Shown here piece after piece: positions 37,273 to 52,694 of a DNA stretch of 64,000 nucleotides. This DNA comes from Minisyncoccota bacterium. GTDB taxonomy: Bacteria > Patescibacteriota > Minisyncoccia > Phycocordibacterales > JAACPR01. The translations under genes and the position numbers were made by a program. The notes beneath the pieces were generated by a model. That model did not search any database and was not told the DNA's origin. It saw nothing but the letters and a program-made list of their open reading frames with translations. Location: the NCBI GenBank assembly GCA_041674225.1, contig JBAYWG010000001.1:326273-390272 (forward strand), in the 5' to 3' direction. The number at the start of each line of letters is the position of its first letter. Positions within the stretch are counted from its first letter, which is position 1.

Positions 37273-38631
37273 TTATAGCATGGCGCGAATTTGTGAGATT
37301 TGTTGAACGAGGTTTTGATCAGTTTTTAGATCATTTTTTATTTTTTCACAAGAATGTATAACAGTGGTGTGGTCTCTTCCTCCGAGCTTATCCCCTATTG
37401 TTGGGTACGATGTGCTGAAGTCTTCTCTCAGAATGTACATGGTGATTTGTCTTGGTCTTACAACTTCTTTTTTTCTGGTTTTATCACAAATAGCGTCTGG
37501 ATCAATGTTGTAGAAATCAGCAACAAGTTTTATCAAGTCTTTGATAGAAACCATCTTCTTTGGGCGTGCACTGTTTTTTACCAGGTCTTTTACATCGTTT
37601 AGATTAAGTTCTCTGTTCTTTAGTTGAGATTGGCAAGCTATTGAATTGATTACCCCTTCTAATTCTCGAATGTTTCCATCAATTGTTGTTGAAAGGAAAT
37701 CACAAATTTCAGCCGAGATGCAGATGTTGTTTTGCTTCGCTTTTGTTTGAAGAATTGAAATTCTTGATTCTGAATCCGGCTTAGGAATATCTACAATCAT
37801 TCCTTGGTTGAATCTCGACTTCAATCTTTCTTCTAAACCAGGAATAAAGTTTGGATGCATATCTGATGAAAAAACAATTTGTTTGTTGTTGTCATAAAGA
37901 GTGTTGAACAAATGAAAAAGTTCTTCTTGAGTTTTTTCCATCTTTGAAAGGAATTGAATATCGTCCATTATCAACACATCGTATTTTCGATATTTATCTT
38001 TAAACACAGTCATTTTATTTTGTTGAATAGCAGCAACGTATTCAGACGCAAATTTTTCTGAAGTTAGATAAAAAACTTTTTTATCTCTTTGATTTTCTTT
38101 TATTTTATTTCCGATTGCTTGTATTAAGTGAGTTTTTCCGTGTCCTGTATTTCCATAAATAAATAATGGGTTGTAAACAATTCCCGGTTGTCGAACAATC
38201 GCTTGTGAAGCTGCGTGTGCAAGTTCGTTGAATGATCCAATAATAAAAGAATCAAAAGTATATCGAGGATTTAAATTGTCATCTTTGTTTATGTAATAAT
38301 CCGCAAGAGGAAGTTCTTGAGTTTCTTTTTGTTCTCTCTTCACAAACTTTTCTTTTTGAGCGCGGATCTTTTCGATGTTTGCAACTGTGAATGAAACAGA
38401 TTTTATTTCATCATTTTGATCGCGCAAAGATTTTAGGATTGTTTTTGAAAACTTATTGCTCAACCAATCTTTCACAAAAGTATTTGGTACGCCCACAACC
38501 GCCTCCCCATCGTTTAGTTTTATTAAAAATGTATCTTTAAACCAAGTTGCAAAGTTTGCTTTTGAAACTAGTGTTTCAATTTCTGCCAGAGAAGTTTCCC
38601 ATAAATTTTTTGTGTCGTTGATTATTGTCAT
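37273..38631 (-). CDS. dnaA: Chromosomal replication initiator protein DnaA
   Basis: AAA+ GNTGHGKTHL, Walker B IMDDIQFL, C-terminal DNA-binding helix with basic loop motif (...SYPTIGDKLGGRDHTTVIHSCEKI). Start at MTIIND. Confidence 0.9.
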   Translation of the reverse strand: MTIINDTKNLWETSLAEIETLVSKANFATWFKDTFLIKLNDGEAVVGVPNTFVKDWLSNKFSKTILKSLRDQNDEIKSVSFTVANIEKIRAQKEKFVKREQKETQELPLADYYINKDDNLNPRYTFDSFIIGSFNELAHAASQAIVRQPGIVYNPLFIYGNTGHGKTHLIQAIGNKIKENQRDKKVFYLTSEKFASEYVAAIQQNKMTVFKDKYRKYDVLIMDDIQFLSKMEKTQEELFHLFNTLYDNNKQIVFSSDMHPNFIPGLEERLKSRFNQGMIVDIPKPDSESRISILQTKAKQNNICISAEICDFLSTTIDGNIRELEGVINSIACQSQLKNRELNLNDVKDLVKNSARPKKMVSIKDLIKLVADFYNIDPDAICDKTRKKEVVRPRQITMYILREDFSTSYPTIGDKLGGRDHTTVIHSCEKIKNDLKTDQNLVQQISQIRAML

Positions 38632-38749
38632 TTTGAAAAACTGTTGATAGCTTATTATATACACATGACAGAAATGAGAAACTTGTGAAATTCCCTTCTT
38701 TATGTTAAAAACTTGTTTACAAACTGTGAATAAGTATAAATAAAATTTT
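38632..38749. promoter_or_regulatory. oriC candidate region 2 (dnaA-rpmH divergent intergenic) with DnaA box
   Basis: TGTGAATAAG at about 38725 is the reverse complement of TTATTCACA, a perfect match to TTATNCACA; classic rpmH-dnaA divergent arrangement. Confidence 0.5.
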
Positions 38750-39215: not shown

Positions 39216-39995
39216 ATGAAAGAACTTTTTAATGACCTGTTTTTTATACCCCTTTACAATGTCCTAGTTTTCTTTATTGATATTATTCCTGGAGGAGATG
39301 TGGGGTTTGCGGTGATTGCCCTTACACTTATGGTGAAGTTTATTCTCTTCCCTCTTTCTAAATCAGCTGTACGAACTTCTATTAAAAGTCGAGAAATTCA
39401 ACCAGAACTAGAAGAACTAAAAACAAAATACAAAGATAATAGAGAGGAAATGGGTCGAGCAATGCTTGATTTGTACAAGAAGCACCAAATAAACCCTTTC
39501 TCTGGGATACTTCTTATTTTTATTCAATTGCCAGTTATTTTGGCTCTTTATTGGGTGGTATATAAAGGTGGTCTGCCAGCCATAAACACAGACATCCTTT
39601 ATTCTTTTATTAGTGCCCCTTTAAACGTCGACATGACCTTTCTTGGGGTATTTCACATTGCAGAATCAAAGAACATAACACTGGCGCTTTTGGCTGCTGT
39701 GACTCAACACATTCAAGCGCGATTATCTTTCCCAAAACAAGAAAAGAAAGAGAAAAAAGAATCAGACAAACCAGATTTCAAGGAAGATTTAATGAGAGGT
39801 ATGCAAATCCAAATCAAATGGGTTCTTCCTGTGATGGTGTTTGCTTTTTCTTATGGACTAATCGCGGTGGTTTCTTTGTATTGGACTATCTCAAACCTTT
39901 TTGCCATTGGACAAGAGATTTATATTCGGGAAACAATCAAAAAACCTGCTCAAAAACTTAAGGATCAATTAGATCTCGACGCTCCAAAGAGTTAA
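39216..39995 (+). CDS. yidC: Membrane protein insertase YidC (short form)
   Basis: 259 aa, 5 TM helices, conserved YidC/Oxa1 region (ILFPLSKSAVRTSIKSREIQPELEELKTKY...NPFSGILLIFIQLPV). Confidence 0.8.
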   Translation: MKELFNDLFFIPLYNVLVFFIDIIPGGDVGFAVIALTLMVKFILFPLSKSAVRTSIKSREIQPELEELKTKYKDNREEMGRAMLDLYKKHQINPFSGILLIFIQLPVILALYWVVYKGGLPAINTDILYSFISAPLNVDMTFLGVFHIAESKNITLALLAAVTQHIQARLSFPKQEKKEKKESDKPDFKEDLMRGMQIQIKWVLPVMVFAFSYGLIAVVSLYWTISNLFAIGQEIYIRETIKKPAQKLKDQLDLDAPKS

Positions 39996-41270
39996 ATCTC
40001 TTTTATTTACAAATAGAATAAAGTCATCTTTTGGACTTGTTGCAAGTTTTATCATGTCAAAACTTTGCTCCACCTCTTCCTTGTCACCTAAAATCTGATC
40101 GTATTGTTGAGTGTCTAGATTTATTCTCCAAAGGTTGTCAGCTAGAGATGTTGTTCCTTGATACCATGATTCAGGTAGAGCAACTCTTGGCATTTGAGTT
40201 GGTCCTGCGCAGAAAAGTACATCTTGGCTTGTTTGAGCAAAAACACATTTCTCAGGAAGAGTTGTCACTCCAAGTCTTTTTGTCTCCCCTGTTTCTGTGT
40301 TTAGTGAAAATGTACTGAACTCATTTGTTCTTGATACAGAGTATATTAGCCATTTTTCGTTAGAGCTAATTATTGCTGTAAGCCCAGATAAGTCTCCAAG
40401 TAGTTTTTCAGAAGATCCGTTCTGTGCATTTACAAGATAAGCAAAACCAGACACTCGCGAGTCAGCTTTTGTTGTCATTAAAATATTATTTGTGTTTACT
40501 CGCGAAATTACCCAATCTTTTAAAGGTGATTCCATAACTATTTTTTTAGAAAGGTCGTCGAGTGTAGATGTTATCAATGTGCTTCCGCCTGTGTTTTTTG
40601 GTAATAAATAAGTTAGTCCCGCCGCACTTAGTTTAGCGTCGATAAGGTTTGGAGAAAGATAAGTTCCTTCAAGTGCAAATCCGTCTGCAACCGGAGCCCC
40701 TCCAGAAGGTGATGTTGCAGATTTTTCAGTTACTTTAGCAGAAAGAGTCTGTGTTGATTCTTGGTCTTCATTTAAAATTCTCAAAAGAACCCTCTCTCCA
40801 TCTCTTGAAAAATAAGAATCAACCACACGTGGAATAGTTGTGTTTGAAAGCCTTGTTTGTGTCAAAGAGTCTTCCCTTGCTTCATAGAGGTGTCCTGTAG
40901 ATCTTTCAAGATATCGAAATACCACAAATGTATCTCTCTCTGTTGTTTCTGAACCATCTTCAGAAATAATTGGCCGAGAAGTGTTACCTGTTCTCTCGAT
41001 TGCAACAGATCCAGCTACAGGCACTTGAGAAAGTTGTCGAAGTCTTGGAATTAGATTTCGATTTAGAGGGTTTGTTCTGTTTGGATCAGCTCCAATTTCA
41101 CCATTTTCATCCATACCTGGAATATCAACAGGAAAGAAATCTTCAGGACGATTAAAAGCCGAAGGGTTTGTTGGATCCACATCTTCTTTTATAAAAAACA
41201 ACCAAACGACAAAACCGATAAAAGCAAATATTAAGATAAAAATTGTCCAAGCAAGTATTTTTCTAATCAT
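39969..41270 (-). CDS. Hypothetical membrane-anchored exported protein (last gene of the T4SS-like cluster)
   Basis: 433 aa, N-terminal TM, no recognised domain; co-directional and tightly packed with the cluster. Confidence 0.4.
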   Translation of the reverse strand: MIRKILAWTIFILIFAFIGFVVWLFFIKEDVDPTNPSAFNRPEDFFPVDIPGMDENGEIGADPNRTNPLNRNLIPRLRQLSQVPVAGSVAIERTGNTSRPIISEDGSETTERDTFVVFRYLERSTGHLYEAREDSLTQTRLSNTTIPRVVDSYFSRDGERVLLRILNEDQESTQTLSAKVTEKSATSPSGGAPVADGFALEGTYLSPNLIDAKLSAAGLTYLLPKNTGGSTLITSTLDDLSKKIVMESPLKDWVISRVNTNNILMTTKADSRVSGFAYLVNAQNGSSEKLLGDLSGLTAIISSNEKWLIYSVSRTNEFSTFSLNTETGETKRLGVTTLPEKCVFAQTSQDVLFCAGPTQMPRVALPESWYQGTTSLADNLWRINLDTQQYDQILGDKEEVEQSFDMIKLATSPKDDFILFVNKRDLTLWSVEI

Positions 41271-41284
41271 GAAATTATTATAAC

Positions 41285-42043
41285 CTATCTTCTAATCGCA
41301 CCTAGTGTGTAATTCTCTTTTTCAACTAATACCAATTCGAAACTTCCTAGTGCGTTATTATCTAGGCCGAGCGCAATTCGCCCCGCCTCTGAAATCATTA
41401 AAGTGTTCTCAATTGGGTTTCTAGAATCAATCTCCACCACTACTTCTTTGTTGTTAGTTAAATTTTTAATTTTTAAATATTTTGTTGATAGGAATCTGTT
41501 TGCAACCCCAGTGTTTTCTACTATTGTAAAACCTGATTTCAGGGCTAATTCACTGGTTGGATACGCGGCATAGTATTCTGCACTCGGAATTCTTTCTCTT
41601 ATTGGAACTCCACTTACTTCCCCTACATCTCCATATCCAAATCTTCCGCTTGCATCACCTGGTGTGAAAATAATATTTTCTCCTGCTGAGTCTTGTGCAA
41701 AATAATATTCCCCAAATTCGTCTGAAGAAACAAACTCCAGCCCACCAATACTTTTAGGATTTCTAATCAAAGAGTATTCAACATTATTTTTTATTACAGT
41801 TTTAATATCTTTTGGCCCACCGTATACATTTATTTTCAATTTATTAAGACCAAAAGATTCAAAATACTCTGTTGGGCTCGAAGATGTGTCTTCTTTTACA
41901 AAATCAAAAGATTGCTCTGCTGGAATATTTTCTGCTGGAGAGTTTGATACTTCTGCTCTATCTTGAAATGTAAAAATAATTCCAAAGATTGCAAAAATTA
42001 TTATGATGACAGAAACCCCTATAATTATTTGTTGTTTATTCAT
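41285..42043 (-). CDS. Hypothetical bitopic protein (N-terminal TM plus about 220 aa extracytoplasmic domain; VirB8-like topology possible)
   Basis: Topology and size only. Confidence 0.35.
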   Translation of the reverse strand: MNKQQIIIGVSVIIIIFAIFGIIFTFQDRAEVSNSPAENIPAEQSFDFVKEDTSSSPTEYFESFGLNKLKINVYGGPKDIKTVIKNNVEYSLIRNPKSIGGLEFVSSDEFGEYYFAQDSAGENIIFTPGDASGRFGYGDVGEVSGVPIRERIPSAEYYAAYPTSELALKSGFTIVENTGVANRFLSTKYLKIKNLTNNKEVVVEIDSRNPIENTLMISEAGRIALGLDNNALGSFELVLVEKENYTLGAIRR

Positions 42044-42681
42044 TATCCAAAAATATCAATTATGAATTTTGTACCATCTCCTTTTGATGGAAGAATTGTT
42101 GAAATCATTAGAATTGAAACTAGTGCAATCAAAAGACCTCCTAGAGCTGCGTAGATTTTGTCTTTTCCTGCCCCTTTTGCAAAAACAGATTCGCTTCCCA
42201 TATATTGAATTCCGCCCACAATCATCATTATTACCGCCAAAACAATAGTTATCGTGATTGAAACTGTAAAAATAGTTTCAATCATTCCACCCAAACCTGT
42301 TCTTCCGTCAAAAAAAGTTTGATAACCGGGCGTAATTGGTTTGTATTTACTTCCACTTGCGCTATTTGAGACAGGGTTGGTGCTTACATTCCTTCCCGCA
42401 GACGCTCCAAGGTTTCCAATGTTTGAATTGTTGGTGCTTACATTCCTTCCCGCAGACGCTCCAAGGTTTCCAATGTTTGAATTGTTGGGATTTACTCCCG
42501 AGTCTTGTTGTGCTGCTTCCGTAGACAATCTATCTTCCAGACGTTTTGCAGCTTCCTCCATTTGATCACTAAGATTAAGATTTGGACGCTGAGCTTGAGC
42601 GACAGTTGTGTTTATTGAATATATAAATATAAATACAATTACAAATATAAAATATTTAGTTTTAGAAAGCAGTTGTTGCAT
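42043..42681 (-). CDS. Signal-peptide protein with tandem 19-aa repeat and C-terminal pair of TM helices (candidate VirB2/TrbC-like pilin)
   Basis: N-terminal signal peptide, repeat NNSNIGNLGASAGRNVSTN twice, C-terminal hydrophobic hairpin GGMIETIFTVSITITIVLAVIMMIVGG...LLIALVSILMISTIL. Confidence 0.35.
   Translation of the reverse strand: MQQLLSKTKYFIFVIVFIFIYSINTTVAQAQRPNLNLSDQMEEAAKRLEDRLSTEAAQQDSGVNPNNSNIGNLGASAGRNVSTNNSNIGNLGASAGRNVSTNPVSNSASGSKYKPITPGYQTFFDGRTGLGGMIETIFTVSITITIVLAVIMMIVGGIQYMGSESVFAKGAGKDKIYAALGGLLIALVSILMISTILPSKGDGTKFIIDIFG
42378..42491. repeat. Perfect 57-bp tandem duplication (2 copies) inside the pilin-like gene
   Basis: TGGTGCTTACATTCCTTCCCGCAGACGCTCCAAGGTTTCCAATGTTTGAATTGT occurs twice in tandem. 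Confidence 0.85.
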
Positions 42682-43693
42682 CGTTGTTTATTGTATCAAA
42701 TTGTTGATTTCCCAACACGTTAATTTTGAAAAGATTACTCCCTTCTTGAAGAATGTTTTGAACATGCTCTACTTTTACAGATAAGCTAGCCGTTCCACTT
42801 TTTTCTTTCCCAGGATTTAAATAATTGATAAAGCTTCCAACAGAGTCGTCCCCTACTGGTCGGCCGTTTTCAAACCAAGAATATTGTAAATTTCCCGAAC
42901 TTCTTTCTTGTGCGCTAAAAAAGTATGGAACAGCCGTTATTCCCACCTCCTCTCTGTCAAAATTAAATGTTCCAGTAAGTGCTTTTTCAAAAATACTTCC
43001 ATAAATTGGATTATTTTCATAAAGGATAACTTGAGGAATTGTTGGATTTATTAAAATTCTTTTCTTTGCTGTGAGATTTGAATTGATAGATTCAGCCACT
43101 ACAGAAACATAAAAAGGTCTTGAGATTAAAGATCCTTGAATTTTGATACTATCTCTCCCCGTTCCAGAAGCCGATTGAATTATTTCGTCGTCCTTTGACC
43201 AAGTGTAAGTAATTCTTTCTTTTGGAAGTAAAACCCCATTTTCTATAAAATTTGTCATCGCCGCTACTGTCAGAGATGATTGATGCGTAAAAAGTGATCG
43301 TCCTTTGTAAAATGGAGGAACATAAGTATCTGCTTCATAAACTAAATCTAAGTCTGTAGGGTTAATAGAAATCGAATCACGCAAAACCAAACCATTTTCT
43401 TTAGTTACATTCACAGAAATATTCGAGTTCCTTCCAGATTCAGGGGCTTGAAATTGGAAAAAAGTCTCTCCCACCCCGCTTTTTTTTACAACCCCATCTA
43501 CTAGCCAAGAAATATTGGTCTTTTTTAGGCTCGCATAATAACTGCTTTTTACTTGTGCACTGACCATTTCTTTTGGTGCTGGAATTTTAGGAATAATTTC
43601 AATAGAAACTGTTTCATCAAAAGCAGATGAAGTTGTTTGTGCAAAAAATTGAATTGGAGAAAATATTAGTGCAAAGAGTATTAAATATTTCAT
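42662..43693 (-). CDS. Secreted hypothetical protein (signal peptide)
   Basis: MKYLILFALIFSPIQFFAQ signal peptide; 343 aa. Confidence 0.4.
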   Translation of the reverse strand: MKYLILFALIFSPIQFFAQTTSSAFDETVSIEIIPKIPAPKEMVSAQVKSSYYASLKKTNISWLVDGVVKKSGVGETFFQFQAPESGRNSNISVNVTKENGLVLRDSISINPTDLDLVYEADTYVPPFYKGRSLFTHQSSLTVAAMTNFIENGVLLPKERITYTWSKDDEIIQSASGTGRDSIKIQGSLISRPFYVSVVAESINSNLTAKKRILINPTIPQVILYENNPIYGSIFEKALTGTFNFDREEVGITAVPYFFSAQERSSGNLQYSWFENGRPVGDDSVGSFINYLNPGKEKSGTASLSVKVEHVQNILQEGSNLFKINVLGNQQFDTINNDATTAF

Positions 43694-43754
43694 TATGATT
43701 ATTTTAACTCTTTTTAAAAAAGTTAACTACTTATTTATTAAATACAAAAAGGTT

Positions 43755-44327
43755 TTATTTCTTTGCCGCGGCTTTTTGGGCAGCTTTATCTGCTAGGGCG
43801 CTATCAAGATAGTTCCAAATAAATATAATTGTAAACAAAGGAAGCGCTTCTATAACAGGAATGCTCTCTGCGGCTATCGCAACAAGCCTCAACCATTTTG
43901 GAAGCTTCAGCGCCGCTTTAAAAGCTTCTTCTGCTTTAGCTGCTGCTTCAGCAAGCTTTCCGGCTTTCTGGAGTCTGTTAGAGCTTCCCATATATCGGGT
44001 TACTTTTCTAAAATCTGTAATTGTGCTCGCTTTATGAACATCTTCATATCCAAAGCTACTTTCCAGATTCCTTGCATTAGCTTGATGTTTTTTGTCTTTT
44101 TTATGTAGATAAATAAGGAGTAGCGGGGTAAAAATAAATGTAGTACAGATCCATACGATGGCAGCACCTGGTCCTGTGAAGTATCCTCCAATATCTATTA
44201 TGTCTACCAAGATACAAAGTATCAGCATAAGAATATCAAGACCAACGTCTTTTTTTGTGGTGGTCTCAGTCTGAGAAGTTTTTCCGTTTCCCTGTCTGGC
44301 TAGTCGGGTCACCTTTTCGTTTGCCAT
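43755..44327 (-). CDS. Membrane protein, hypothetical (T4SS-associated)
   Basis: 190 aa, several TM helices, Ala/Lys-rich C-terminus; immediately downstream of VirB4. Confidence 0.4.
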   Translation of the reverse strand: MANEKVTRLARQGNGKTSQTETTTKKDVGLDILMLILCILVDIIDIGGYFTGPGAAIVWICTTFIFTPLLLIYLHKKDKKHQANARNLESSFGYEDVHKASTITDFRKVTRYMGSSNRLQKAGKLAEAAAKAEEAFKAALKLPKWLRLVAIAAESIPVIEALPLFTIIFIWNYLDSALADKAAQKAAAKK

Positions 44328-44328
44328 G

Positions 44329-46209
44329 TTAGTTTACTGTATTACTTTTAACCTCTGTTGTTCGTCGAGCTAGGACGTCAGACGCTTTTGTTCCTGCAGA
44401 TTCTTTCAAATCAGATTTAGCTTTTTTGATTTGTAGAACCTGTGAAGGGTCGGATGTAATAATCTGATCCTCTGTATAAGAAGCAATAATTTTAATAGCA
44501 ACGTGTTTGATTCCGGCGAAGAAGATTCCCTCCCCCACATCAGATTCTAGAAGTAGATATTTTTCTTCTTCGGTTAGGTTGAAAGTTTGCTGAATCATAT
44601 CAATCGCTGTTGGAGATTGTTTTAACAAAAGTTGAATCGATGAGTTGGTAATAATTGGCATTCCATAAGGTGATCGCAAAAAGTCTTCCACGTCTTGTGT
44701 AATTGTAGACATTCCCAAATAATATTTTCGTCCTCGTTTTGCAAGACCAAACAAAAATGATGCAGTGTCTTCTGATTTCATCATCCACCATGCCTCATCA
44801 ATCACTAATAATCTTTTCTTTAATTGCTTTCTAACTGCATTCCAAATAAAGTGTGTCACCAAATACATCGCAACTGGTTTTAGTTCATCTTCCATGTCTC
44901 TCAAAGAAAACACGACGAATCTTTTATTTATATCTACGTTTGTTGGTCTATTGATGAAACCTGACCATGTTCCTCGAGTGTATTTAGAAAGTTTTTGTGC
45001 CAAAGATTCCCCTCCTTCCATTCCAGACAAAACATATTCGAAGTCTGAAAGAAGTGGCGGTTCAATATTTGAGAAATCACTTTCAGGAGTAATATCTTTC
45101 AATGCATAAGTTTCTGCAATTGCTCTATCCACGATAGCATCTTCTTCTGGAGTTAATCCTCCAAGCATCAGTCGGAAAAGCCCTACAAGGTTTACAATGT
45201 TTGAGCGCAAAATATCAGACGCAGCTTCATCATCTCTTGCTGGCGGAAGATCAAAAGGGTTAATGTGGTGATCTGATGTAAGAGAAATGTTGAAGTACCT
45301 TCCTCCTGTGGCTTCTGCCAAGAATTCGTATTCCCTTTCAGGGTCGATTACTAGCACATCTGTTTCAAACATTAGTGTTCTCAAAATTTCTAGTTTTGTA
45401 GCGTAAGATTTTCCAGAACCGGCTTTCGCAAACGTTACAGAGTTGTAGTTTTCTAGACTGAATCTATCAAACAAAATTAGTGAACTGTTGTGTCGGTTGA
45501 TTCCAAAAAGAATTCCTTTGTCTGATGTAAGGTCAAAAGAAATAAAAGGAAACAAACTTGAAAGAGGTGCAGAATTTAGTTTTGAATGAACTCCTAAAAT
45601 ATCTTGAGCAGTTGGAATAACAGTTTTAAAACCTTCCTCTTGTTGAAAAAGTGCAGGTTTTACATAAACTAATTTTGCTTCAAGAATTGATTTTATTTCT
45701 GATTCAAATTTATCTAGTTCATCTTTGCTTTCTGCATAAATAGAAAAATAGAGTCCAACATCAAATATTTTTTCTTGAGCTTGCTGCAAACTGTCTCTCA
45801 AAATTTCCAAATCTTGATAAGCTGTATCCAATATAGGATCTCGAACCAACCCTTTATTTTCTCGTGTGTGAATTTGTGATTGTACTTCCGCAACTTTCTT
45901 TTTGAATTGTCGCAAAATTGTAGCCGTATCTATCGGGTGAACATAAATAGAAATATCAAAAACTCTGTCCAAGTTAATCACCGGAGAAAACCAAGAGTCA
46001 GACAAAAATCTTGGATATGAAATCACAAAGAAACTTCTCACCATTTTGTCCCCCAGGTTTATTTCCCTAGGTGTTACTTTCAAAGCGCTCGGTGCAATCA
46101 CATCTTGCAACTCCAAAACTCCAGCTTCATAAATTTCTTGTGGCAGAAAAGAAGTAATCTGTGTTGGTTCTTTTTGTTTTTTTCCTTTTATAAAATCAAG
46201 TATTCCCAT
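44329..46209 (-). CDS. Type IV secretion system ATPase VirB4/TrbE/TraC family (C-terminal ATPase portion)
   Basis: Walker A FAKAGSGKSYA; Walker B LLVIDEAWWMM (DEAW is characteristic of VirB4); C-terminal RGRKYYLGMSTITQDVEDF. Confidence 0.8.
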   Translation of the reverse strand: MGILDFIKGKKQKEPTQITSFLPQEIYEAGVLELQDVIAPSALKVTPREINLGDKMVRSFFVISYPRFLSDSWFSPVINLDRVFDISIYVHPIDTATILRQFKKKVAEVQSQIHTRENKGLVRDPILDTAYQDLEILRDSLQQAQEKIFDVGLYFSIYAESKDELDKFESEIKSILEAKLVYVKPALFQQEEGFKTVIPTAQDILGVHSKLNSAPLSSLFPFISFDLTSDKGILFGINRHNSSLILFDRFSLENYNSVTFAKAGSGKSYATKLEILRTLMFETDVLVIDPEREYEFLAEATGGRYFNISLTSDHHINPFDLPPARDDEAASDILRSNIVNLVGLFRLMLGGLTPEEDAIVDRAIAETYALKDITPESDFSNIEPPLLSDFEYVLSGMEGGESLAQKLSKYTRGTWSGFINRPTNVDINKRFVVFSLRDMEDELKPVAMYLVTHFIWNAVRKQLKKRLLVIDEAWWMMKSEDTASFLFGLAKRGRKYYLGMSTITQDVEDFLRSPYGMPIITNSSIQLLLKQSPTAIDMIQQTFNLTEEEKYLLLESDVGEGIFFAGIKHVAIKIIASYTEDQIITSDPSQVLQIKKAKSDLKESAGTKASDVLARRTTEVKSNTVN

Positions 46210-46213
46210 GTTT

Positions 46214-46852
46214 TTAATTTACCGGAATCGGTTTTTCTACATCTCCTGGATTGAACAGTCTATAAAAAACTTCAATCGCTTCTTCTGTTCCTAATTGTAC
46301 AGCTCTTACTCCTGCTCTTGTAATACCTTGTTGTACGACCGCAATCCTTTGTTCTATTTGTGTGCTGTGTTCTTCAAAATCCTCTTTCTTCCCCGCTGCC
46401 ACTGTGGCGGCACTTTGTTTTTTGAAAAAACCTTTGCTCTTGTTGGAGTTGATGTTGATTGTTGCAGGTGTATAAGGCACAACGATGTAAAAAGTTTTGG
46501 TCATAATATTTGTTCTGTCTGTGAAAGCCTTGATGAATTCAATGTATTCCTTTACTTGGATACGCATCAAATCGTTTATTTGTTCTTTTTCTCGCACCTC
46601 CAATGTTGCGATGTATGGTCGGATGTCTAGCCTTCGTGATTGAATAAAAATCTGTACGCTGAAATTTAGAGAGTTTAGAAATTGTTGAAATTGGAAAATA
46701 ATAGAATCTTGCTCATCTTGAGACTTAAGTGCGAAGTTTACAGAAGATGTCATCAATAGAGCACGCATCGAACCATCTTTCAAAACTAAAATTCCATTAC
46801 GAACTTCTTTAATCGGAACAATTGTTTGTGTTGATTTTTTACTTTCCGCCAT
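46214..46852 (-). CDS. VirB4 N-terminal domain-like protein (split from the ATPase ORF)
   Basis: IVPIKEVRNGILVLKDGSMRALLMTSSVNFALKSQDEQ...IQSRRLDIRPY resembles the VirB4/TraC N-terminal domain. The stop is 4 nt before the ATG of the ATPase ORF, in a different frame. Confidence 0.5.
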   Translation of the reverse strand: MAESKKSTQTIVPIKEVRNGILVLKDGSMRALLMTSSVNFALKSQDEQDSIIFQFQQFLNSLNFSVQIFIQSRRLDIRPYIATLEVREKEQINDLMRIQVKEYIEFIKAFTDRTNIMTKTFYIVVPYTPATININSNKSKGFFKKQSAATVAAGKKEDFEEHSTQIEQRIAVVQQGITRAGVRAVQLGTEEAIEVFYRLFNPGDVEKPIPVN

Positions 46853-46869
46853 AATATTTTTTTATTATA

Positions 46870-47298
46870 TCACTGCTTCGGAGTAATATCGTCTAAAGTT
46901 TCTAGAGTTTCGTGAATATCTAATCCCCAAGATAAATCTTTTAGTTTGCTGTTTGAAAGTTTTGGCACATCAAGTGATGCTCTTTGAATAATTTCTGCAG
47001 CTTGTTTCTCCGGAGTTCGCTCTCTTTTTTTCCAAAGATAAAGTTTTGGTGCAAATAAATATTTAAAGAAATGTTCGATTGCTATCACTAGTGGTCTGTC
47101 GTTTACTTTCCAAAAAGCTAATCCAAAAAACAAAGCCACAAAAGGTGCTCCAAATAAAATTGCTAAAAATCTCGGAAAGGTTGTCCAAAAAACAAAGCCG
47201 ATAGCTATCCCCGCTCCAGCATAAAGGAATTGTTTTAATGTAAATGGTCCGAATATTTTATCTTCGATTTCTAAGAATTGTGGAACTTGATATTTCAT
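46870..47298 (-). CDS. VirB3/PrgI-like small two-TM membrane protein
   Basis: 142 aa, two adjacent TM helices (FLYAGAGIAIGFVFWT...LAILFGAPFVALFFGLAFW), positioned directly upstream of the VirB4 N-domain. Confidence 0.45.
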   Translation of the reverse strand: MKYQVPQFLEIEDKIFGPFTLKQFLYAGAGIAIGFVFWTTFPRFLAILFGAPFVALFFGLAFWKVNDRPLVIAIEHFFKYLFAPKLYLWKKRERTPEKQAAEIIQRASLDVPKLSNSKLKDLSWGLDIHETLETLDDITPKQ

Positions 47299-47307
47299 AT
47301 TTATATT

Positions 47308-48120
47308 CTACGCTACTGGTTCTCTGTATGGATCTACTTTTGCAGGTTGAGTTGTGTTTGGTGGTGTGATTTTTTCTTCAAATACTGATGTATCAACCGA
47401 TTTTGGCATTGGAATGAAGATTGGCTTTGGTGGAGTAACCGGTTTAATTGTGACTGGCTCAGGTTTTATTTCTGCAACAACTGGTGGAACTATAAGTGTT
47501 ATTGGGGTCTTTGGAATTTCTGGCGCCACAGGAACAGTTGGAATAGTTGGAATTTTTAAGTCTTCTGGAATAGGTTCTTTGTAAGGATCTTCCTTTTTTA
47601 CTTCTACGACAGACGGCACAGGTGGTGTAACTGGAGAAACTGAAGCATCTTTAGTTTCGTTTTTATTTTCAAAATAATCAGAAGGAATTTTGTTTTTTAG
47701 AGAAGGTTTTGAATTTATTTTTACCGCACTCTCGATATCTTGAGCAACTCTGTTTAGTTGGCTGTTGGCCTCTCTGTCTACATCCGCGACTGTATCTGCT
47801 GTCTCTGTAATAGAAATCAGTTTCCGGCGGATGTCTCCAAAGATTTCTCGTTCAACTTCGTTTGAAATTGTATAAGCTTGATCGTCACTTACTCCTGCAT
47901 ACTCTTTTGCGTTTCGTACAAAAGTTTCTGGAGTTTCTATTCCTAACATTGTGATGAAAACTAGATTTTCAATGGCTGCTCCTTGATCAACATGAAGATT
48001 GTTATTTTTTACAACTCTACGAATTTTTTCTTGCCAATTAGAACCAGTGATAGTATCTCGAATTACCGGTGGTAATGTTTTGAATTGTTCTTTTATGATG
48101 CTTTGTGTGTCGTTATCCAT
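47308..48120 (-). CDS. Pro/Val/Thr-rich hypothetical protein (no TM)
   Basis: C-terminal PxxP-rich low-complexity region (TPPVPSVVEV...IPTIPTVPVAPEIPKTPITL...). Confidence 0.4.
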   Translation of the reverse strand: MDNDTQSIIKEQFKTLPPVIRDTITGSNWQEKIRRVVKNNNLHVDQGAAIENLVFITMLGIETPETFVRNAKEYAGVSDDQAYTISNEVEREIFGDIRRKLISITETADTVADVDREANSQLNRVAQDIESAVKINSKPSLKNKIPSDYFENKNETKDASVSPVTPPVPSVVEVKKEDPYKEPIPEDLKIPTIPTVPVAPEIPKTPITLIVPPVVAEIKPEPVTIKPVTPPKPIFIPMPKSVDTSVFEEKITPPNTTQPAKVDPYREPVA

Positions 48121-48123
48121 ATT

Positions 48124-50214
48124 TTATTTTCCCTCTTTATCTCCTCCTTTGCTATCAGATTTATTATCCGGCTTCTTGTCATCCCCTTCCAATAGTTTTT
48201 TTAGATCCTTCAATTGTTTTTGTTCTGTAGACATTGCTTTCATAATTTCCCCAGCTGCCTTCTTGTCAATTGACTTTGCACTTGGCAACCAAGTGGTTGG
48301 CATAACTAAGTCTATTTTGGTGCGATTTCCTTCTAAATTATCCGCGTGCTTCATTCTTTGTGATTTCATTGCCACAACTTTTTCAAGTGCTTTGTATTCA
48401 TCAGTGTCTCTTACTCTAGTTTCATGTGTGCTTAAATTTTGTGTGGCATTAGATAGGAGTGTGTTAATGCGCTTCATTCGTTCTGAATCTCCTGAAGATT
48501 TTGCAGCTTCATAATCAATATTTAGTTCATTGATTGTCTTTTTAGCCTCCACAACATAATCATCAGAATTTATAGATGCTTCCATGTCTTTCTTAGCTTG
48601 TTTTTGTGCCTCTTTTTGATCATCTGTAAAGCCGTCGCTTAGATTTTTTGAGCGGTCAACTCTTAGTTTTTGAGATCTTTCTTGTTGACCTATGTAACCA
48701 TCTTTTGTTGGAGCAAGTGTTCCTTTAAAGTCTCCTCCAACTCCTGTGGCAGAAGCTACACCTTTAAAGACTTTGGATTCTCTAAGATCAAAGCCAGATT
48801 TAGCAACCCCTTTCATTCCACTTAGTAGTGTCATCCCCGCTCGTGTTGTAGCAAAATTACTTTTTGCAAATTTGTCTGCACCGGCACTAGCTGCCCAACC
48901 AACTGTATTTCTACCAGCAAAACCAATTGTTCCAAGAATTGTCCCACCGACAGCCGATGAAACGCCACCGCTGATTTTGCTAACAGCCGCACTTCCTCCT
49001 GATGATACTTTTTGAGCTACGATTAGTGCGGCAACAAAAAGTCCTATTATAATTCCATAAATCATTGCTACTCCACCAACCACATTAACCACTGATGCAA
49101 AGGTAGAAGTACCTTCTACTGTATTGTTGAGTGCATTCTCTGTTATCTTTGCCACATTTTCTGGCACCTTTTCGGCTATTTTTACCGCAACATATATAAA
49201 CAAAAGAAATGCCGGTAGAAAAAAAGAATGACCCACCAAAGATCTCCACCATTCTTCGGATATTTTTTTTGTGTTTGGCAAAACCATACTTGCAAAAGCA
49301 ATCGGAGATACAATCAAAAGAAGAATAAGAGCAACTAATCTTCCTATTATGATACTTAAAGCTGAAAACAAAACTGCAGCTAAAACTAATGACGTTATAC
49401 CACTCAGTGTGGAAGCCACTGCCACGACTAACATTTTTTGGAAAAAAGTACCTATTGCCCATCCTGTTTCAAATGCTGTTTTAGATCCAGGTAATTTTTT
49501 ATACCAAGGCATTTCAGAGTATGTTTTCTCAAGAAGCTTTTCTTGGTTTTTGTCGAATTGAGAGTTCATTATTGACCCGAACGCCGCCACTTGGGTTTTT
49601 TCATAGAAATAAGAACCAAGCTTTAGACTGTCACCATTGTCTCCAGAAGAATTTTTATCAGTCTCTTCTTTTATTTGGTCATAAATTGTTAAAGCCATTT
49701 CGTTAGAAATATCGATAACCACTGCTCCAAAGAAAAAACTAAAGTTCATTAAAAGTGCTGCCAAGATAGCTTTGCTTAAAAGTTTCTTGGCTTCATATCC
49801 ACTGAACTGAAGTATTGTGCTGATTGCAATAAAAATAAGCACAAAAATAATTCCAATATTGGCAATATTTCTAAAAATTTTCCAAGAGTCTTGGACAATG
49901 TTACTACCTGTGACAAAGTCACTCATACCATACACAGCCAGATCTATTGCTAAATCGAAACCATAAGAGGCAATCCCCAAGACAAGTGCTGCTATGGATG
50001 AAAAAAAGTAAGCAATAACTGCAAGTACAGGAGAGGCTAGCTGCAATCCTTCCGCGGGAAGATCGACAAGAGGTTTCTCTGTGAGGTCTTTTTCTTCTGG
50101 TGTTTCGGACGCCGCCGGTGCATCTTGTGCAAAGACAAAATCAGACGGGTTAAGAAATATTGTGAATAAAAAAAGTAATACAAAAAAACTTTTTTTATTA
50201 AACAAAAAACTCAT
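48124..50214 (-). CDS. VirB6/TrbL-like polytopic membrane protein with charged C-terminal tail
   Basis: 696 aa, signal-like N-terminus, at least 8 TM helices over the first 450 aa, then a hydrophilic Lys/Asp-rich tail; architecture and position match VirB6/TrbL. Confidence 0.5.
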   Translation of the reverse strand: MSFLFNKKSFFVLLFLFTIFLNPSDFVFAQDAPAASETPEEKDLTEKPLVDLPAEGLQLASPVLAVIAYFFSSIAALVLGIASYGFDLAIDLAVYGMSDFVTGSNIVQDSWKIFRNIANIGIIFVLIFIAISTILQFSGYEAKKLLSKAILAALLMNFSFFFGAVVIDISNEMALTIYDQIKEETDKNSSGDNGDSLKLGSYFYEKTQVAAFGSIMNSQFDKNQEKLLEKTYSEMPWYKKLPGSKTAFETGWAIGTFFQKMLVVAVASTLSGITSLVLAAVLFSALSIIIGRLVALILLLIVSPIAFASMVLPNTKKISEEWWRSLVGHSFFLPAFLLFIYVAVKIAEKVPENVAKITENALNNTVEGTSTFASVVNVVGGVAMIYGIIIGLFVAALIVAQKVSSGGSAAVSKISGGVSSAVGGTILGTIGFAGRNTVGWAASAGADKFAKSNFATTRAGMTLLSGMKGVAKSGFDLRESKVFKGVASATGVGGDFKGTLAPTKDGYIGQQERSQKLRVDRSKNLSDGFTDDQKEAQKQAKKDMEASINSDDYVVEAKKTINELNIDYEAAKSSGDSERMKRINTLLSNATQNLSTHETRVRDTDEYKALEKVVAMKSQRMKHADNLEGNRTKIDLVMPTTWLPSAKSIDKKAAGEIMKAMSTEQKQLKDLKKLLEGDDKKPDNKSDSKGGDKEGK

Positions 50215-50267
50215 ATGAAAATTATAACATTAGGATTGAAATTTAAAACAAAACTATTCAGTTTTGT

Positions 50268-51884
50268 TTATGAAATATCCTCACCTAGTTCCTTCGTCAT
50301 TTGATAAACTTTTGAAAAATACTCTGCGATAAGTTTTCCATCTTCCCCTGCTTCGTCTAGTCCTACAAATCTACTTATCGCAAGCATCATGTGTTCTAGT
50401 GCTTGTGGTAAATAATGTGTTGCAGGGATTACAATATCACCTGTTTCTGGATCAGTGATGTTTAAATGTCCTTGTGCTATTTCTGTTTCATAAGCGAGCT
50501 CTCGAGTGTTTGAAGTTATTATTTCATCAACCTCCAATGCTATTTCAAAGTGTTTAAATAGAACACTTCCTCTAGCATCTGATTGAGTTAGAAAGTTTTC
50601 TATTTTATTTAAATCATATTTTTCTTCACTAGATTCTTCGGCTGAACATTGCTGATTTGACTCTCGATTGATTAAGGATTGGCTATTTCTGACTTTAACC
50701 AAAGATTCAGCAATATTCTTTTCTTCTTCCGGTAAACATGACTTTGCTTCTTGAAGTTTTTCAATAGCTTGTTCAAATGCTTTATCTTGAATGTTTATGA
50801 AGTGTTTTTTGTAATTAACTACAAAAGTAGGCTTATCATCATTTCCTGTGTATAGGAAATTTGTTGATTTCTCAATCATGATTTTGATAGAAACATCGAT
50901 ATTGCAGTTAGAAACAGCATCAAGCGAAGGGGTTTTTTCTTTTTCATCTACCCTACCAATTTCTTTTTCTGTAAGTGCTGCAATGTTTTTCTCTATGTTT
51001 TGGATAGGTGTAACTATTGGTTTAGGATCGGTTGGTACTAATTGTTCTTTGGGTTCTTCTGGCTTCTTTTGTTGAAGCTCCTCACGCATTTTTTCTGTCT
51101 TTTTATCTTGTTCTTCACACTTTTGTTCATCCTTTTGTTTTTGAGTTGCATCTTCATCACCCTCTGTTACATCCTCTGTGGTAAATGTTCCAGGGTCGTC
51201 TTCTTCTTCTCCGTCGGGGTTAGAGTCAGGGTTATTTGGATCGTTTGGATTATTTCCACCTCCACCACCTCCAGGATTGTTTGGATCAGTAGGATTATTT
51301 GGATTATTTGGATTGTTTCCAGTGTTACCACCAGTGTTTCCTCCGGTATTACCACCGGTATTTCCTCCTGTGTTACCACCAGTGTTACCACCAGTGTTTC
51401 CTCCGGTATTACCACCGGTATTTCCTCCTGTGTTACCACCAGTATTACCACCGGTATTTCCTCCTGTGTTACCACCAGTATTACCACCACCTCCAGGAAT
51501 ATTTGGAATTTCCAGAACAGTTACAGTACAATCGTCTGAAAGAGTTATTCCCCCTGTTGTGATTGTTACTGTAGCCGTTTTTATACCAATGTTTGAATAC
51601 CTTGCTGTTGTTGTCGCTCTGTTCACGTCTTGTATAGAATTACCTTCCCATTCATAAGAAATTGTAGAACTTGCATTTGAAACAATTGCTCTCCAAGTTA
51701 CAGTTGAATTCTTCAAAACAATATTTTGGTGAGGTTCACATTTAACACTTAATGGCGCTGGAGCTGTTTGTGCTTGTGTTTGTCGAGAAAAAGCCTGAAA
51801 CGAGAAAAAGGCAATAATCAAAACACCTAAAACACCGCTTAAAATTATTTTCAGAACTTTTTTTAAATTAAATTGATTTGTCAT
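50268..51884 (-). CDS. Secreted or surface protein with Ig/PKD-like N-terminal region, about 19 GGNT repeats, an Asn/Pro-rich and acidic linker, and a C-terminal globular domain
   Basis: N-terminal TM/signal; beta-rich Thr/Ser segment (NSTVTWRAIVSNASSTISYEWEGNS...TVTITTGGITL); (GGNT)n; NPNNPNNPTDPNNPGGGGGG. Confidence 0.5.
   Translation of the reverse strand: MTNQFNLKKVLKIILSGVLGVLIIAFFSFQAFSRQTQAQTAPAPLSVKCEPHQNIVLKNSTVTWRAIVSNASSTISYEWEGNSIQDVNRATTTARYSNIGIKTATVTITTGGITLSDDCTVTVLEIPNIPGGGGNTGGNTGGNTGGNTGGNTGGNTGGNTGGNTGGNTGGNTGGNTGGNTGGNTGGNTGNNPNNPNNPTDPNNPGGGGGGNNPNDPNNPDSNPDGEEEDDPGTFTTEDVTEGDEDATQKQKDEQKCEEQDKKTEKMREELQQKKPEEPKEQLVPTDPKPIVTPIQNIEKNIAALTEKEIGRVDEKEKTPSLDAVSNCNIDVSIKIMIEKSTNFLYTGNDDKPTFVVNYKKHFINIQDKAFEQAIEKLQEAKSCLPEEEKNIAESLVKVRNSQSLINRESNQQCSAEESSEEKYDLNKIENFLTQSDARGSVLFKHFEIALEVDEIITSNTRELAYETEIAQGHLNITDPETGDIVIPATHYLPQALEHMMLAISRFVGLDEAGEDGKLIAEYFSKVYQMTKELGEDIS
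51318..51490. repeat. 12-nt tandem repeat array (about 14 units; higher-order 60-nt units 51341..51400 and 51401..51460) encoding (GGNT)n
   Basis: GTGTTACCACCA / GTATTTCCTCCG-type units directly visible in the sequence. Confidence 0.85.
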
Positions 51885-51887
51885 GTT

Positions 51888-52694
51888 TTAAAAATTTCCC
51901 CAGAGAATTCCTGATTCATCTTCTGAAAAAATTATATCATTTAATTTAAAGTAGTATGAAATATTTGATAAAATTTCCGGTTGAATTTCTCTGATTTGAT
52001 TATATTGATTTAAAAACAAAGAAAGCAAGATGGGATCCTCATCTGTTTGTGCAATTTTAACTAACAAGATATTAATCTTATATAAATTGTTTATATACTT
52101 TAAATGGTCATCAGAAATACTTCTTGGGATGCTAATTTTTGACAATTCCTCGGCCTCTTCCCCAAAAACATTAGAGTATTTAATAATAAATTCCATATCA
52201 TCTTCAGCATCTACAGTTCTTAGTTTGTTTGTGTATTTTGTAATTATTTTTGCAAACTGGTTTCCGTATTGTTTAGCGTCATCTTTTCTATAATCAGGAA
52301 AAGTTGAAAGTTGATAAATAGAGTATTTGTTTGGGATTGTAGTAGCGGCAACAGTTTCTTCAGCTAGTTTTGTTGTTAGTTTATCTAAGTTTTCTGGCGT
52401 ATTTAGTGACCGGTTTTTTAAATCTTCATAATTTCCAAGAAGTCCTAGTAGCACAGATTCTGAAAAAGTTTCTGGCGGCGTGTAGTCAATTTTATCTGGA
52501 TTTTTCTCTGCTTCCTCTAATAGAAATTGTTCCAAAGTTTTTACAGGTGAATTATCCATAACCTCAGTACCGTCTACCTCACCGAATACTTTTTGCAGAG
52601 ATCTTTTTGCCATTACATCTTTTCCAATCAAAGCAATCATCAAGGATACTGTGATGATTATTACTCCTATTACTTTTCTACTTGGCTTTTGCAT
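51888..52694 (-). CDS. Hypothetical membrane-anchored protein (first gene of the cluster)
   Basis: 268 aa, N-terminal TM. Confidence 0.4.
   Translation of the reverse strand: MQKPSRKVIGVIIITVSLMIALIGKDVMAKRSLQKVFGEVDGTEVMDNSPVKTLEQFLLEEAEKNPDKIDYTPPETFSESVLLGLLGNYEDLKNRSLNTPENLDKLTTKLAEETVAATTIPNKYSIYQLSTFPDYRKDDAKQYGNQFAKIITKYTNKLRTVDAEDDMEFIIKYSNVFGEEAEELSKISIPRSISDDHLKYINNLYKINILLVKIAQTDEDPILLSLFLNQYNQIREIQPEILSNISYYFKLNDIIFSEDESGILWGNF

Follow-up and report, generated by a model that had tools for sequence, protein, structure and literature searches.

Organization of the locus

Two adjacent genes of a T4SS, here called ORF1 and ORF2, were found on the minus strand of the window, i.e., the whole stretch of 64,000 nucleotides that was analyzed. 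Sequence inspection confirmed their order as ORF1, the spacer AAAC and then ORF2. The features of the pair and of its surroundings are listed below.

46214..46852, minus strand: ORF1, 212 aa, ATG start, C-terminus ...DVEKPIPVN, stop TAA; stand-alone TrsD-like protein
46210..46216, minus strand: ORF1/ORF2 junction, TAA stop (46216..46214) followed by the 4-nt spacer AAAC (46213..46210)
44329..46209, minus strand: ORF2, 626 aa, start MGILDF...; VirB4-type T4SS ATPase
45406..45429, minus strand: Walker A (P-loop) A-K-A-G-S-G-K-S, ORF2 residues 261-268, from a motif search
44794..44811, minus strand: Walker B L-L-V-I-D-E, ORF2 residues 467-472, from a motif search
46870..47298, minus strand: PrgI-family (VirB3-like) small membrane protein (Pfam PF12666 PrgI, E 1.9e-8, 35.2 bits against a cut-off of 27)
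46864..46872, minus strand: extended -10-like box TGATATAAT
48124..50214: VirB6-like candidate, 696 aa, multiple hydrophobic segments (sequence inspection only, no profile match)
35900..37000: DnaN
37273..38664: DnaA
53195..53992: KsgA

The 4-nt out-of-frame junction given in the preliminary description proved exact, reading TAA-AAAC-ATG on the minus strand, and the frame of ORF2 is +1 with respect to that of ORF1. Although an A5 run is present in the junction (TAAAAAC), an in-frame TAA located 12 nt 5' of the ORF2 ATG (ggTAAattaaaaacATG) makes the fusion of the two frames by a simple indel in this run impossible and leaves the last sense codon of ORF1 as the only one that could host a fusing shift. 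No SD-like motif or TAnAAT box was found before ORF2. A generic sigma-70/terminator scan returned no site at the junction and no terminator-like site inside the pair on the minus strand, with no enrichment compared to shuffles. The junction is probably a site of translational coupling at which termination is followed by re-initiation.

The PrgI-family gene lies directly 5' of ORF1, and its product is expected to tether the VirB4 N-terminal piece to the membrane and to act as its partner; in R388, the VirB4 N-terminal domain has PrgI/VirB3 as its partner (PMC12857230). Other T4SS membrane components are thus encoded alongside ORF2, namely PrgI and, as a candidate, the VirB6-like protein. NCBIfam and Pfam searches gave no useful names for the neighbour proteins encoded at 39969..44327 and 47308..52694. 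The extended -10-like box ends 11 nt before the ORF1 ATG and overlaps the PrgI stop codon. Of the 60 ORFs in the window, 25 have a TAnAAT box in the 30 nt before their start, against a background of 4.9%. The box upstream of ORF1 might serve as the promoter of a near-leaderless trsD-like/virB4 transcript, only a consensus-level lead that was not called in a generic -35/-10 scan.

The VirB4-type ATPase

ORF2 matched NF045971 (VirB4-like, CD1110 family) with an E-value of 4e-110 and 369.2 bits, above the curated cut-off of 325 for this VirB4/TraC-type ATPase profile, and the match spans positions 178-733 of the 752 in the model. Pfam matches to P-loop_TraG (87.5 bits against a cut-off of 25.8), AAA_10 and DUF87 were also obtained, PDB entry 4ag5 (VirB4 C-terminal domain) was matched at E 2.8e-41, and the ATPase domain corresponds to residues 446-735 of TrwK. 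Both Walker motifs are intact, and the ATPase motifs had been correctly placed in the 626-aa downstream ORF. Among 30 homologues, G264, G266, K267 and S268 are invariant in Walker A, as are L467 and V469-E472 in Walker B, with L468 falling under the 90% conservation threshold.

A complete N-terminal domain is not present on the ORF2 polypeptide, which starts at position 178 of 752 in the CD1110-family profile and at about residue 225 of the Lactococcus VirB4. It lacks the first ~175-225 residues of the fused VirB4 proteins and retains the second half of the N-terminal region together with the C-terminal P-loop ATPase domain. The 120 best-matching ORF2 homologues are all 550-703 aa in length. 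An AF2 model of ORF2, based on a 30-sequence alignment with 79-96% identity, had a mean pLDDT of 38 and a pTM of 0.24 and was left out of the fold search.

The TrsD-like protein

ORF1 matched the N-terminal part of three profiles of full-length VirB4 proteins, namely CD1110 (positions 2-119 of 752, E 2e-7), Mbov_0397 (positions 99-233 of 894, E 1.7e-9) and TIGR00929 (positions 4-183 of 792, E 1.4e-6). An AF2 model of ORF1 (pLDDT 76) gave TrwK/VirB4 of R388 as all of the top 14 fold matches in the PDB, with probabilities of 0.94-1.0, an E-value of ~3e-3 and a TM score of 0.4-0.5 that make this a modest link. It comes from the fold comparison only, since a search of PDB sequences with the ORF1-family profile found nothing meaningful (E 0.29 at best, for an unrelated protein from yeast). 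The family HMM of ORF1 also matches the N-termini of fused VirB4 proteins of 748-906 aa, as in P0358 (residues 9-202, E 1.9e-15), P0245 (E 7e-10) and P0250 (E 8e-8). Remote homology to the VirB4 N-terminal region was therefore found by profiles, fold comparison, hhalign (below) and the family HMM, as the preliminary description had proposed from the resemblance of ORF1 to the VirB4/TraC N-terminal domain; an absence of such homology, which would have spoken against that proposal, was not observed.

The TrsD/TraD family profile NF041427 was matched at positions 11-143 of 201 with an E-value of 2.5e-6, but the score of 27.5 bits lies below the curated cut-off of 200 bits. ORF1 is a remote relative of the TrsD/TraD subfamily as defined by NCBIfam, lying outside its membership. 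The layout is that of TrsD/TraD, with a stand-alone protein of 212 aa encoded 4 nt 5' of the VirB4-like ATPase gene. ORF1 carries the precomputed Pfam tag PF26593; a local Pfam search with ORF1 gave only sub-threshold matches (TraC_F_IV, E 0.082; DUF1398, E 0.009), which were taken as noise.

A total of 6319 database homologues of ORF1 were found at E<=1e-3, indicating homology far beyond chance. The best 120 of these, drawn from independent assemblies (NCBI, JGI, ENA and Logan), are all 202-226 aa in length with identities from 100 down to 65%, and proteins of 212 aa at 100% and 90-96% identity are present in independent assemblies. The ORF1 alignment contains 68 invariant columns.

Tiling of the two ORFs on fused VirB4

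A direct search with the ORF1 HMM missed the N-terminal end of the 805-aa VirB4 of Lactococcus, and a profile-profile comparison was needed. In this comparison, hhalign placed residues 7-209 of ORF1 on residues 35-211 of the Lactococcus protein (probability 95.8%, E 8e-9). Residues 32-569 of ORF2 correspond to its residues 225-778. The combined length of the two ORFs (212+626 = 838 aa) compares with 805 aa for the fused protein. In these alignments, ORF1 and ORF2 tile the fused VirB4 with no segment missing, the outcome for which alignment to full-length VirB4 proteins had been suggested as a check, and the N-terminal piece absent from ORF2 is ORF1. The break point falls near residues 211-225 of the 805-aa VirB4, within the part commonly termed the N-terminal domain.

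Conservation of the split in relatives

We compared the loci of 79 GTDB species representatives of Paceibacteria/Parcubacteria. The two genes are separate in all 79 and fused in none. ORF1 counterparts end after the same C-terminal motif at any of the three stop codons (TAA 61, TAG 16, TGA 2), and ORF2 counterparts start at their own ATG with a shared M-G-I/L-F/L-D-F. The spacer ranges from 1 to 496 nt, mostly 1-9 nt with a mode of 4-5 nt, and relative frames 0, 1 and 2 occur in 22, 32 and 25 loci respectively. A gene for a 23S_rRNA_IVP four-helix bundle lies between the two counterparts in five loci, and gaps of 100-500 nt in some loci require ORF2 to be initiated independently there. ORF1 evolves faster than ORF2, with identities across loci of 52-86% against 74-94%.

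Natural fused forms do exist (P0445 and P0358) but are rare: of the 150 top representatives of clusters at 50% identity, only P0445 (797 aa) is fused. Long disordered extensions of 261-443 aa, rich in P, Q, T and A, were observed in 41 of the 150 best family representatives. The variable spacers, frames and stop codons, together with the intervening genes, exclude sequencing error, pseudogene formation and programmed frameshifting. Three options had been left open at the outset, with an examination of orthologous loci proposed; the two-gene arrangement is the one that stood, being conserved in 79/79 loci, and the frameshift and the sequencing error fell away.

Comparison with known systems

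A published survey with the MPF-FATA TrsD HMM reports TrsD, which is remotely homologous to the VirB4 N-terminus, from 2,221 Patescibacteria assemblies, and 1,664 of these homologues adjoin virB4 (Quinonero-Coronel et al., Microb Genom 2025, PMC12102498). In that survey, TrsD ranks first in abundance among the T4SS components of Patescibacteria and is cited as essential in Ca. Southlakia epibionticum ML1, the T4SS is typically located near dnaA/dnaN/ksgA, and the TrsD genes of Gracilibacteria lie away from virB4 (PMC12102498). The window shows the same lineage (Paceibacterota/Parcubacteria), the same order of PrgI, TrsD-like and VirB4 genes and the same location near dnaA/dnaN/ksgA; no essential difference was found, and it is one more instance of the patescibacterial TrsD-VirB4 pair. 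Residue-level tiling, the variability of the junction and the rare fused forms do not appear in the part of the survey consulted. The main text of Guglielmini et al. 2014 (PMC4027160) makes no mention of TrsD.

The order PrgI, small protein and ATPase is also found on plasmids of Firmicutes. The staphylococcal pGO1/pSK41 and enterococcal pIP501 systems (MPF-FATA, pGO1 subclass) have a protein of ~210-230 aa encoded directly 5' of a VirB4-like ATPase of ~650-670 aa, with 227 aa (traD) and 670 aa in the pGO1-like system of S. aureus and 209 aa and 653 aa (TrsE) in the pIP501-like system of E. faecalis. The N-termini of ORF2 and the pGO1-like TraE align almost residue for residue, residues 6, 24 and 28 of ORF2 corresponding to residues 3, 21 and 26 of TraE. 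The ORF1 HMM, on the other hand, barely detects S. aureus TraD (E 0.02 in a nine-sequence search), which makes the link between ORF1 and the pGO1 TrsD a remote one. These systems serve plasmid-borne conjugation whereas the system in the window is chromosomal, beside dnaA and dnaN.

Similar pairs occur in the C. botulinum plasmid pCBG, where PrgI is followed by a 257-aa 'TraC family protein' and a 620-aa 'ATP-binding protein', and in Pontibacillus, where a 274-aa protein and a 621-aa member of the CD1110 family follow PrgI. In both pairs, the small protein is a clear homologue by HMM of ORF1 (C. botulinum, E 1.5e-16; Pontibacillus, E 1.7e-34) and the larger one of ORF2 (E 7e-49 and 6e-115 respectively). 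However, the clostridial and Bacillales genes overlap by 11 nt compared with the 4-nt spacing in the window, and the small protein has a hydrophobic TM-like start, a segment absent from ORF1. Fused VirB4 proteins such as the 805-aa CD1110-family protein of Lactococcus, where it follows PrgI, and the 823-aa TrwK of R388 (PDB 7o41, 7o43 and 8rtd) are covered end to end by ORF1 and ORF2, the difference being one polypeptide there and two in the window.

Interpretation of the gene pair

We conclude, with a probability of about 0.92, that the locus carries the gene pair normally found in the monoderm-type T4SS of Patescibacteria (CPR), in which ORF1 is the TrsD-like piece, equivalent to the opening ~200 residues of a classical VirB4, and ORF2 a VirB4 ATPase lacking exactly that piece. 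The two are separate genes that have been kept apart over hundreds of species. The arrangement is real, intact, ordinary for the lineage and already known; its existing name is TrsD/TraD plus TrsE/TraE/VirB4, under which the survey describes it for Patescibacteria (PMC12102498).

An unlikely alternative is that ORF1 is an independent accessory protein of VirB4 N-terminal descent, such as an adaptor, regulator or substrate recruiter, and that ORF2 works without this subdomain. TrsD has no assigned function and is unlinked to virB4 in Gracilibacteria according to the same source (PMC12102498), the disordered extensions suggest extra roles, and the faster evolution of ORF1 points the same way. 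Against this, the two ORFs tile the fused VirB4 proteins exactly at one boundary, the strict adjacency in all 79 loci mostly involves only a few nucleotides, fused forms occur in nature, and PrgI/VirB3, known as the partner of the VirB4 N-terminal domain, is encoded directly 5'.

Programmed +1 frameshifting or stop-codon bypass at AAT-TAA-A, which would yield a fused full-length VirB4, is very improbable. In some other genes, such as prfB, ribosomes are known to shift frame at a stop codon, and ORF2 does lie in the +1 frame, 4 nt past the stop. Among the relatives, however, there is neither a fixed frame relation nor a conserved slippery sequence, the spacers are unrelated, all three stop codons are used, a whole gene intervenes in some loci and ORF2 starts in every case at a conserved ATG of its own, with a conserved N-terminal motif; moreover, the sole permissive codon would re-pair its tRNA poorly (AAT to ATT). 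That a single VirB4 gene was disrupted by a sequencing or assembly error in the A-run, or by a pseudogenising frameshift of recent date, is barely credible, since the A5 run and the rare fused relatives are outweighed by near-identical and identical 212-aa proteins in independent assemblies, the same split with differing spacers in every species-level relative, the TAA that blocks fusion by a simple indel, the strong conservation of both halves and the split length of the best 120 homologues of each ORF.

For the TrsD-like/VirB4 pair, the two genes would be co-transcribed, and the spacing together with the absence of other signals suggests that ORF2 is translated by termination/re-initiation coupling across TAA-AAAC-ATG, which would tend to hold the two products near 1:1. 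The products may then reassemble non-covalently into a VirB4-like protomer, with ORF1 supplying the membrane-proximal subdomain that contacts VirB3 (PrgI) and so anchoring the ATPase hexamer to the translocon. The break point may represent a domain boundary inherited from, or common to, the pGO1/pIP501/clostridial subclass of MPF-FATA.

A broader reading, which as a whole we hold only tentatively and at less than even odds, is that of a single ancient fission at a structural hinge (~residue 211-225) followed by occasional re-fusion, an adaptor role and the acquisition of tails. The break may be common to the whole patescibacterial T4SS clade and the pGO1/pIP501/clostridial monoderm subclass, and P0445 and P0358 may be the re-fusions. 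The freed N-terminal module may have become a separately tunable adaptor docking the ATPase to PrgI/VirB3, and the disordered tails found in about a quarter of the lineages could recruit substrates or host-contact factors. This reading goes past the survey, where TrsD figures, in the part cited, as a component without assigned function (PMC12102498).

The result adds detail to what has already been published and does not amount to a discovery. A split VirB4 is no argument against an intact T4SS. In genome annotation, the T4SS should be treated as intact, with ORF1 and ORF2 neither merged nor flagged as a pseudogene. Few machines have been shown to be essential to epibiotic life in a cultivated CPR bacterium, and the T4SS is one of them; the TrsD-like piece is given in the survey as the most widespread component of the Patescibacteria T4SS (PMC12102498). 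The tiling and the fixed break point provide a testable hypothesis for its function, namely that the TrsD-like protein would act in trans as a VirB4 N-terminal subdomain that binds PrgI/VirB3.

Organisation of the gene pair

The split VirB4 is encoded by two adjacent genes on the minus strand, a TrsD-like gene (ORF1) and a VirB4-type ATPase gene (ORF2), with the gene of PrgI, a VirB3-like small membrane protein, directly upstream of ORF1.

46870..47298 (-), PrgI
46214..46852 (-), ORF1, 212 aa, C-terminus ...EKPIPVN, stop TAA
44329..46209 (-), ORF2, 626 aa, ATG start, MGILDF...

The junction proved to be exactly as in the preliminary description, with the TAA of ORF1, a 4-nt AAAC spacer and then the ATG of ORF2, which lies in frame +1 relative to ORF1. 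As another TAA occurs in the ORF2 frame 12 nt upstream of this ATG, an indel in the A-run is unable to fuse the two frames; a fusing shift is possible only at the last sense codon of ORF1.

Homology and tiling onto fused VirB4

ORF1 matches the N-terminal positions of three full-length VirB4 profiles, namely CD1110 (2-119), Mbov_0397 (99-233) and TIGR00929 (4-183), with E-values of 2e-7 to 1.7e-9, while its match to the stand-alone TrsD/TraD family NF041427 (E 2.5e-6) is well under the cut-off of that family. The 14 top PDB fold matches of an AlphaFold2 model of ORF1 (pLDDT 76, pTM 0.62) are TrwK/VirB4 chains of the R388 T4SS (probability 0.94-1.0, E about 3e-3 to 0.15, TM 0.4-0.5). ORF1 is the counterpart of the N-terminal part of VirB4, and the profiles and fold matches bear out the resemblance to the VirB4/TraC N-terminal domain that had been proposed for it.

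Judged by its sequence, ORF2 is a VirB4-type ATPase with intact motifs, in agreement with the earlier reading. Against the NCBIfam model "VirB4-like conjugal transfer ATPase, CD1110 family" it reaches 369 bits (E 4e-110, cut-off 325), aligning only with model positions 178-733 of 752, and it contains the Pfam domains P-loop_TraG, AAA_10 and DUF87. It also matches residues 446-735 of TrwK and the crystal structure of the VirB4 C-terminal domain, 4ag5 (E 2.8e-41). The Walker A motif AKAGSGKS spans residues 261-268 and the Walker B motif LLVIDE residues 467-472, and nearly all of these residues are invariant among relatives.

The fused comparator was an 805-aa protein from a Lactococcus lactis plasmid, where a PrgI gene likewise lies upstream. 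When the ORF1 family is compared profile to profile with an alignment of full-length VirB4 proteins like this comparator, ORF1 residues 7-209 correspond to residues 35-211 (E 8e-9, probability 95.8%), and the phmmer alignment pairs ORF2 residues 32-569 with residues 225-778. The ORF1-family HMM also directly matches the N-termini of the fused VirB4 proteins P0245 and P0250, and that of P0358 (residues 9-202, E 1.9e-15). Based on these placements, the two ORFs tile one VirB4 with no missing segment; the start of ORF2 carries about 20 additional lysine-rich residues.

Conservation of the split

Among 6319 ORF1 homologues, the top 120 (identity 100 to 65%) all have lengths of 202-226 aa and derive from independent assemblies (NCBI, JGI, ENA and Logan) that bear the names Paceibacterota or Parcubacteria. 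For ORF2, every one of the top 120 homologues has between 550 and 703 aa. With each GTDB species represented by a single genome, 80 loci were recovered, 79 of them with both genes. In all 79, the ORF1 homologue stops at the same C-terminal motif (TAA in 61, TAG in 16, TGA in 2) and the ORF2 homologue starts with ATG and the same M-G-I/L-F/L-D-F. The spacers are unrelated in sequence and range from 1 to 496 nt (mode 4-5 nt), with relative frames of 0 in 22 loci, 1 in 32 and 2 in 25.

In five loci (L004, L025, L027, L032 and L057) a 23S_rRNA_IVP four-helix-bundle gene encoding 116-141 aa lies between both genes, for instance at 4640-5060 in L004; the L025 copy was identified by Pfam scan (PF05635, E 4e-43) and the other four by the NIAEG-type sequence that they share with it. 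Since insertions occur exactly between the split halves in several species, this intergenic spot is suggested to be a recurrent landing site. A less certain ORF was seen between the two genes in L036.

Taken together, these data decide among the explanations left by the preliminary description, and the genuine two-gene arrangement is the one upheld. Programmed frameshifting is ruled out by the spacer lengths, the use of all frames and all three stop codons, and the intervening genes. A recent pseudogene and a sequencing error are ruled out by the homologue lengths and the 79-locus comparison.

Sizes and fusions in the ORF1 family

At 50% identity the ORF1 family has 3126 representatives (E<=1e-3). 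Out of the best 150, 108 are at most 260 aa and 41 (within P0376-P0507) are 261-443 aa; none of these 41 shows similarity to ORF2. Most of the eleven long representatives inspected carry P/Q/T/A-rich low-complexity, apparently disordered C- or N-terminal extensions, and one has a hydrophobic N-terminal extension instead. The ORF1 of the window has no P/Q/T/A-rich tail. The only true ORF1-ORF2 fusion among the best 150 is P0445 (797 aa), with ORF1-like residues 4-214, a joint of about 10 residues and ORF2-like residues 225-792. P0358 (906 aa) is a second naturally fused TrsD-like/VirB4 protein, and both are rare candidate re-fusions.

Split systems of Firmicutes

Firmicutes plasmids have the same layout of a small protein and an ATPase.

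C. botulinum pCBG: PrgI, 257 aa "TraC family protein", 620 aa ATPase; 11-nt overlap
Pontibacillus: 274 aa, 621 aa CD1110-family ATPase; 11-nt overlap
S. aureus pGO1-like: traD 227 aa, 670 aa ATPase
E. faecalis pIP501-like: 209 aa, 653 aa ATPase, TrsE

The ORF1 HMM matches the small proteins of Pontibacillus (E 1.7e-34) and C. botulinum (E 1.5e-16), and staphylococcal TraD only marginally. The ATPase N-termini of all four systems align with ORF2 nearly residue for residue, which puts the break at the same position. The C. botulinum and Pontibacillus homologues (L081 3815-4588 and L082 3884-4708) begin with a hydrophobic, transmembrane-like segment that patescibacterial ORF1 lacks, and their genes overlap the ATPase gene whereas the window has a spacer.

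Translation signals

Of the 60 ORFs in the whole window that do not overlap and reach 120 aa or more, 25 have a TAnAAT box in the 30 nt before the start codon (background 4.9%), mostly ending 6-9 nt ahead of the ATG, and five have an SD-like motif (background 10%). Initiation in this genome seems to depend on mRNAs with very short leaders or none, and not on Shine-Dalgarno motifs. Boxes precede the starts at 50214, 52694 and 41270 (-), and TGATATAAT at 46864..46872 (-) ends 11 nt upstream of the ATG of ORF1. ORF2 is preceded by no TAnAAT box and no SD-like motif, and no minus-strand terminator-like site was found inside the pair. The two genes are probably co-transcribed, and ribosomes that terminate at the end of ORF1 probably re-initiate at ORF2 across TAA-AAAC-ATG.

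Genomic neighbourhood and implications

The T4SS cluster is flanked by dnaN and dnaA on one side, and therefore adjoins these replication genes, and by ksgA and a UvrD-type helicase gene on the other.

35900..37000 (-), DnaN
37273..38664 (-), DnaA
41285..42043 (-), 252-aa protein, faint RlpA-like match (E 0.005)
42043..42681 (-), pilin-like candidate, 212 aa
48124..50214 (-), VirB6-like candidate, 696 aa, many hydrophobic segments
53195..53992 (-), KsgA
54004..55941 (-), UvrD-type helicase

The pilin-like candidate is proposed from an internal segment, NSNIGNLGASAGRNVSTN, that occurs twice in nearly duplicate form, and from two hydrophobic helices at its C-terminus. The nine further co-oriented ORFs around the pair, at 39969..44327 (-) and 47308..52694 (-), among them the VirB6-like and pilin-like candidates, gave no significant family match.

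A Patescibacteria-wide survey of T4SS genes (Quinonero-Coronel et al., Microb Genom 2025; PMC12102498) reports 2,272 TrsD homologues in 2,221 assemblies, 1,664 of them associated with virB4, a TrsD homologue listed as essential in Ca. Southlakia epibionticum ML1, and dnaA, dnaN and ksgA as the usual vicinity. The surroundings in the window, with DnaN, DnaA, KsgA and PrgI, fit this pattern. According to a 2025 review (PMC12857230), the N-terminal domains of VirB4 make contact with VirB3 and VirB8 and hold the ATPase in the membrane. The membrane-proximal, PrgI/VirB3-binding subdomain of VirB4 would be supplied in trans by the TrsD-like protein, which would assemble with the ORF2 ATPase.

The split VirB4 is the ordinary architecture of the patescibacterial T4SS and has been published before. 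The additions made here are small, namely the residue-level tiling, the freely drifting junction, the rare candidate re-fusions and a break point identical to that of the Firmicutes split systems.
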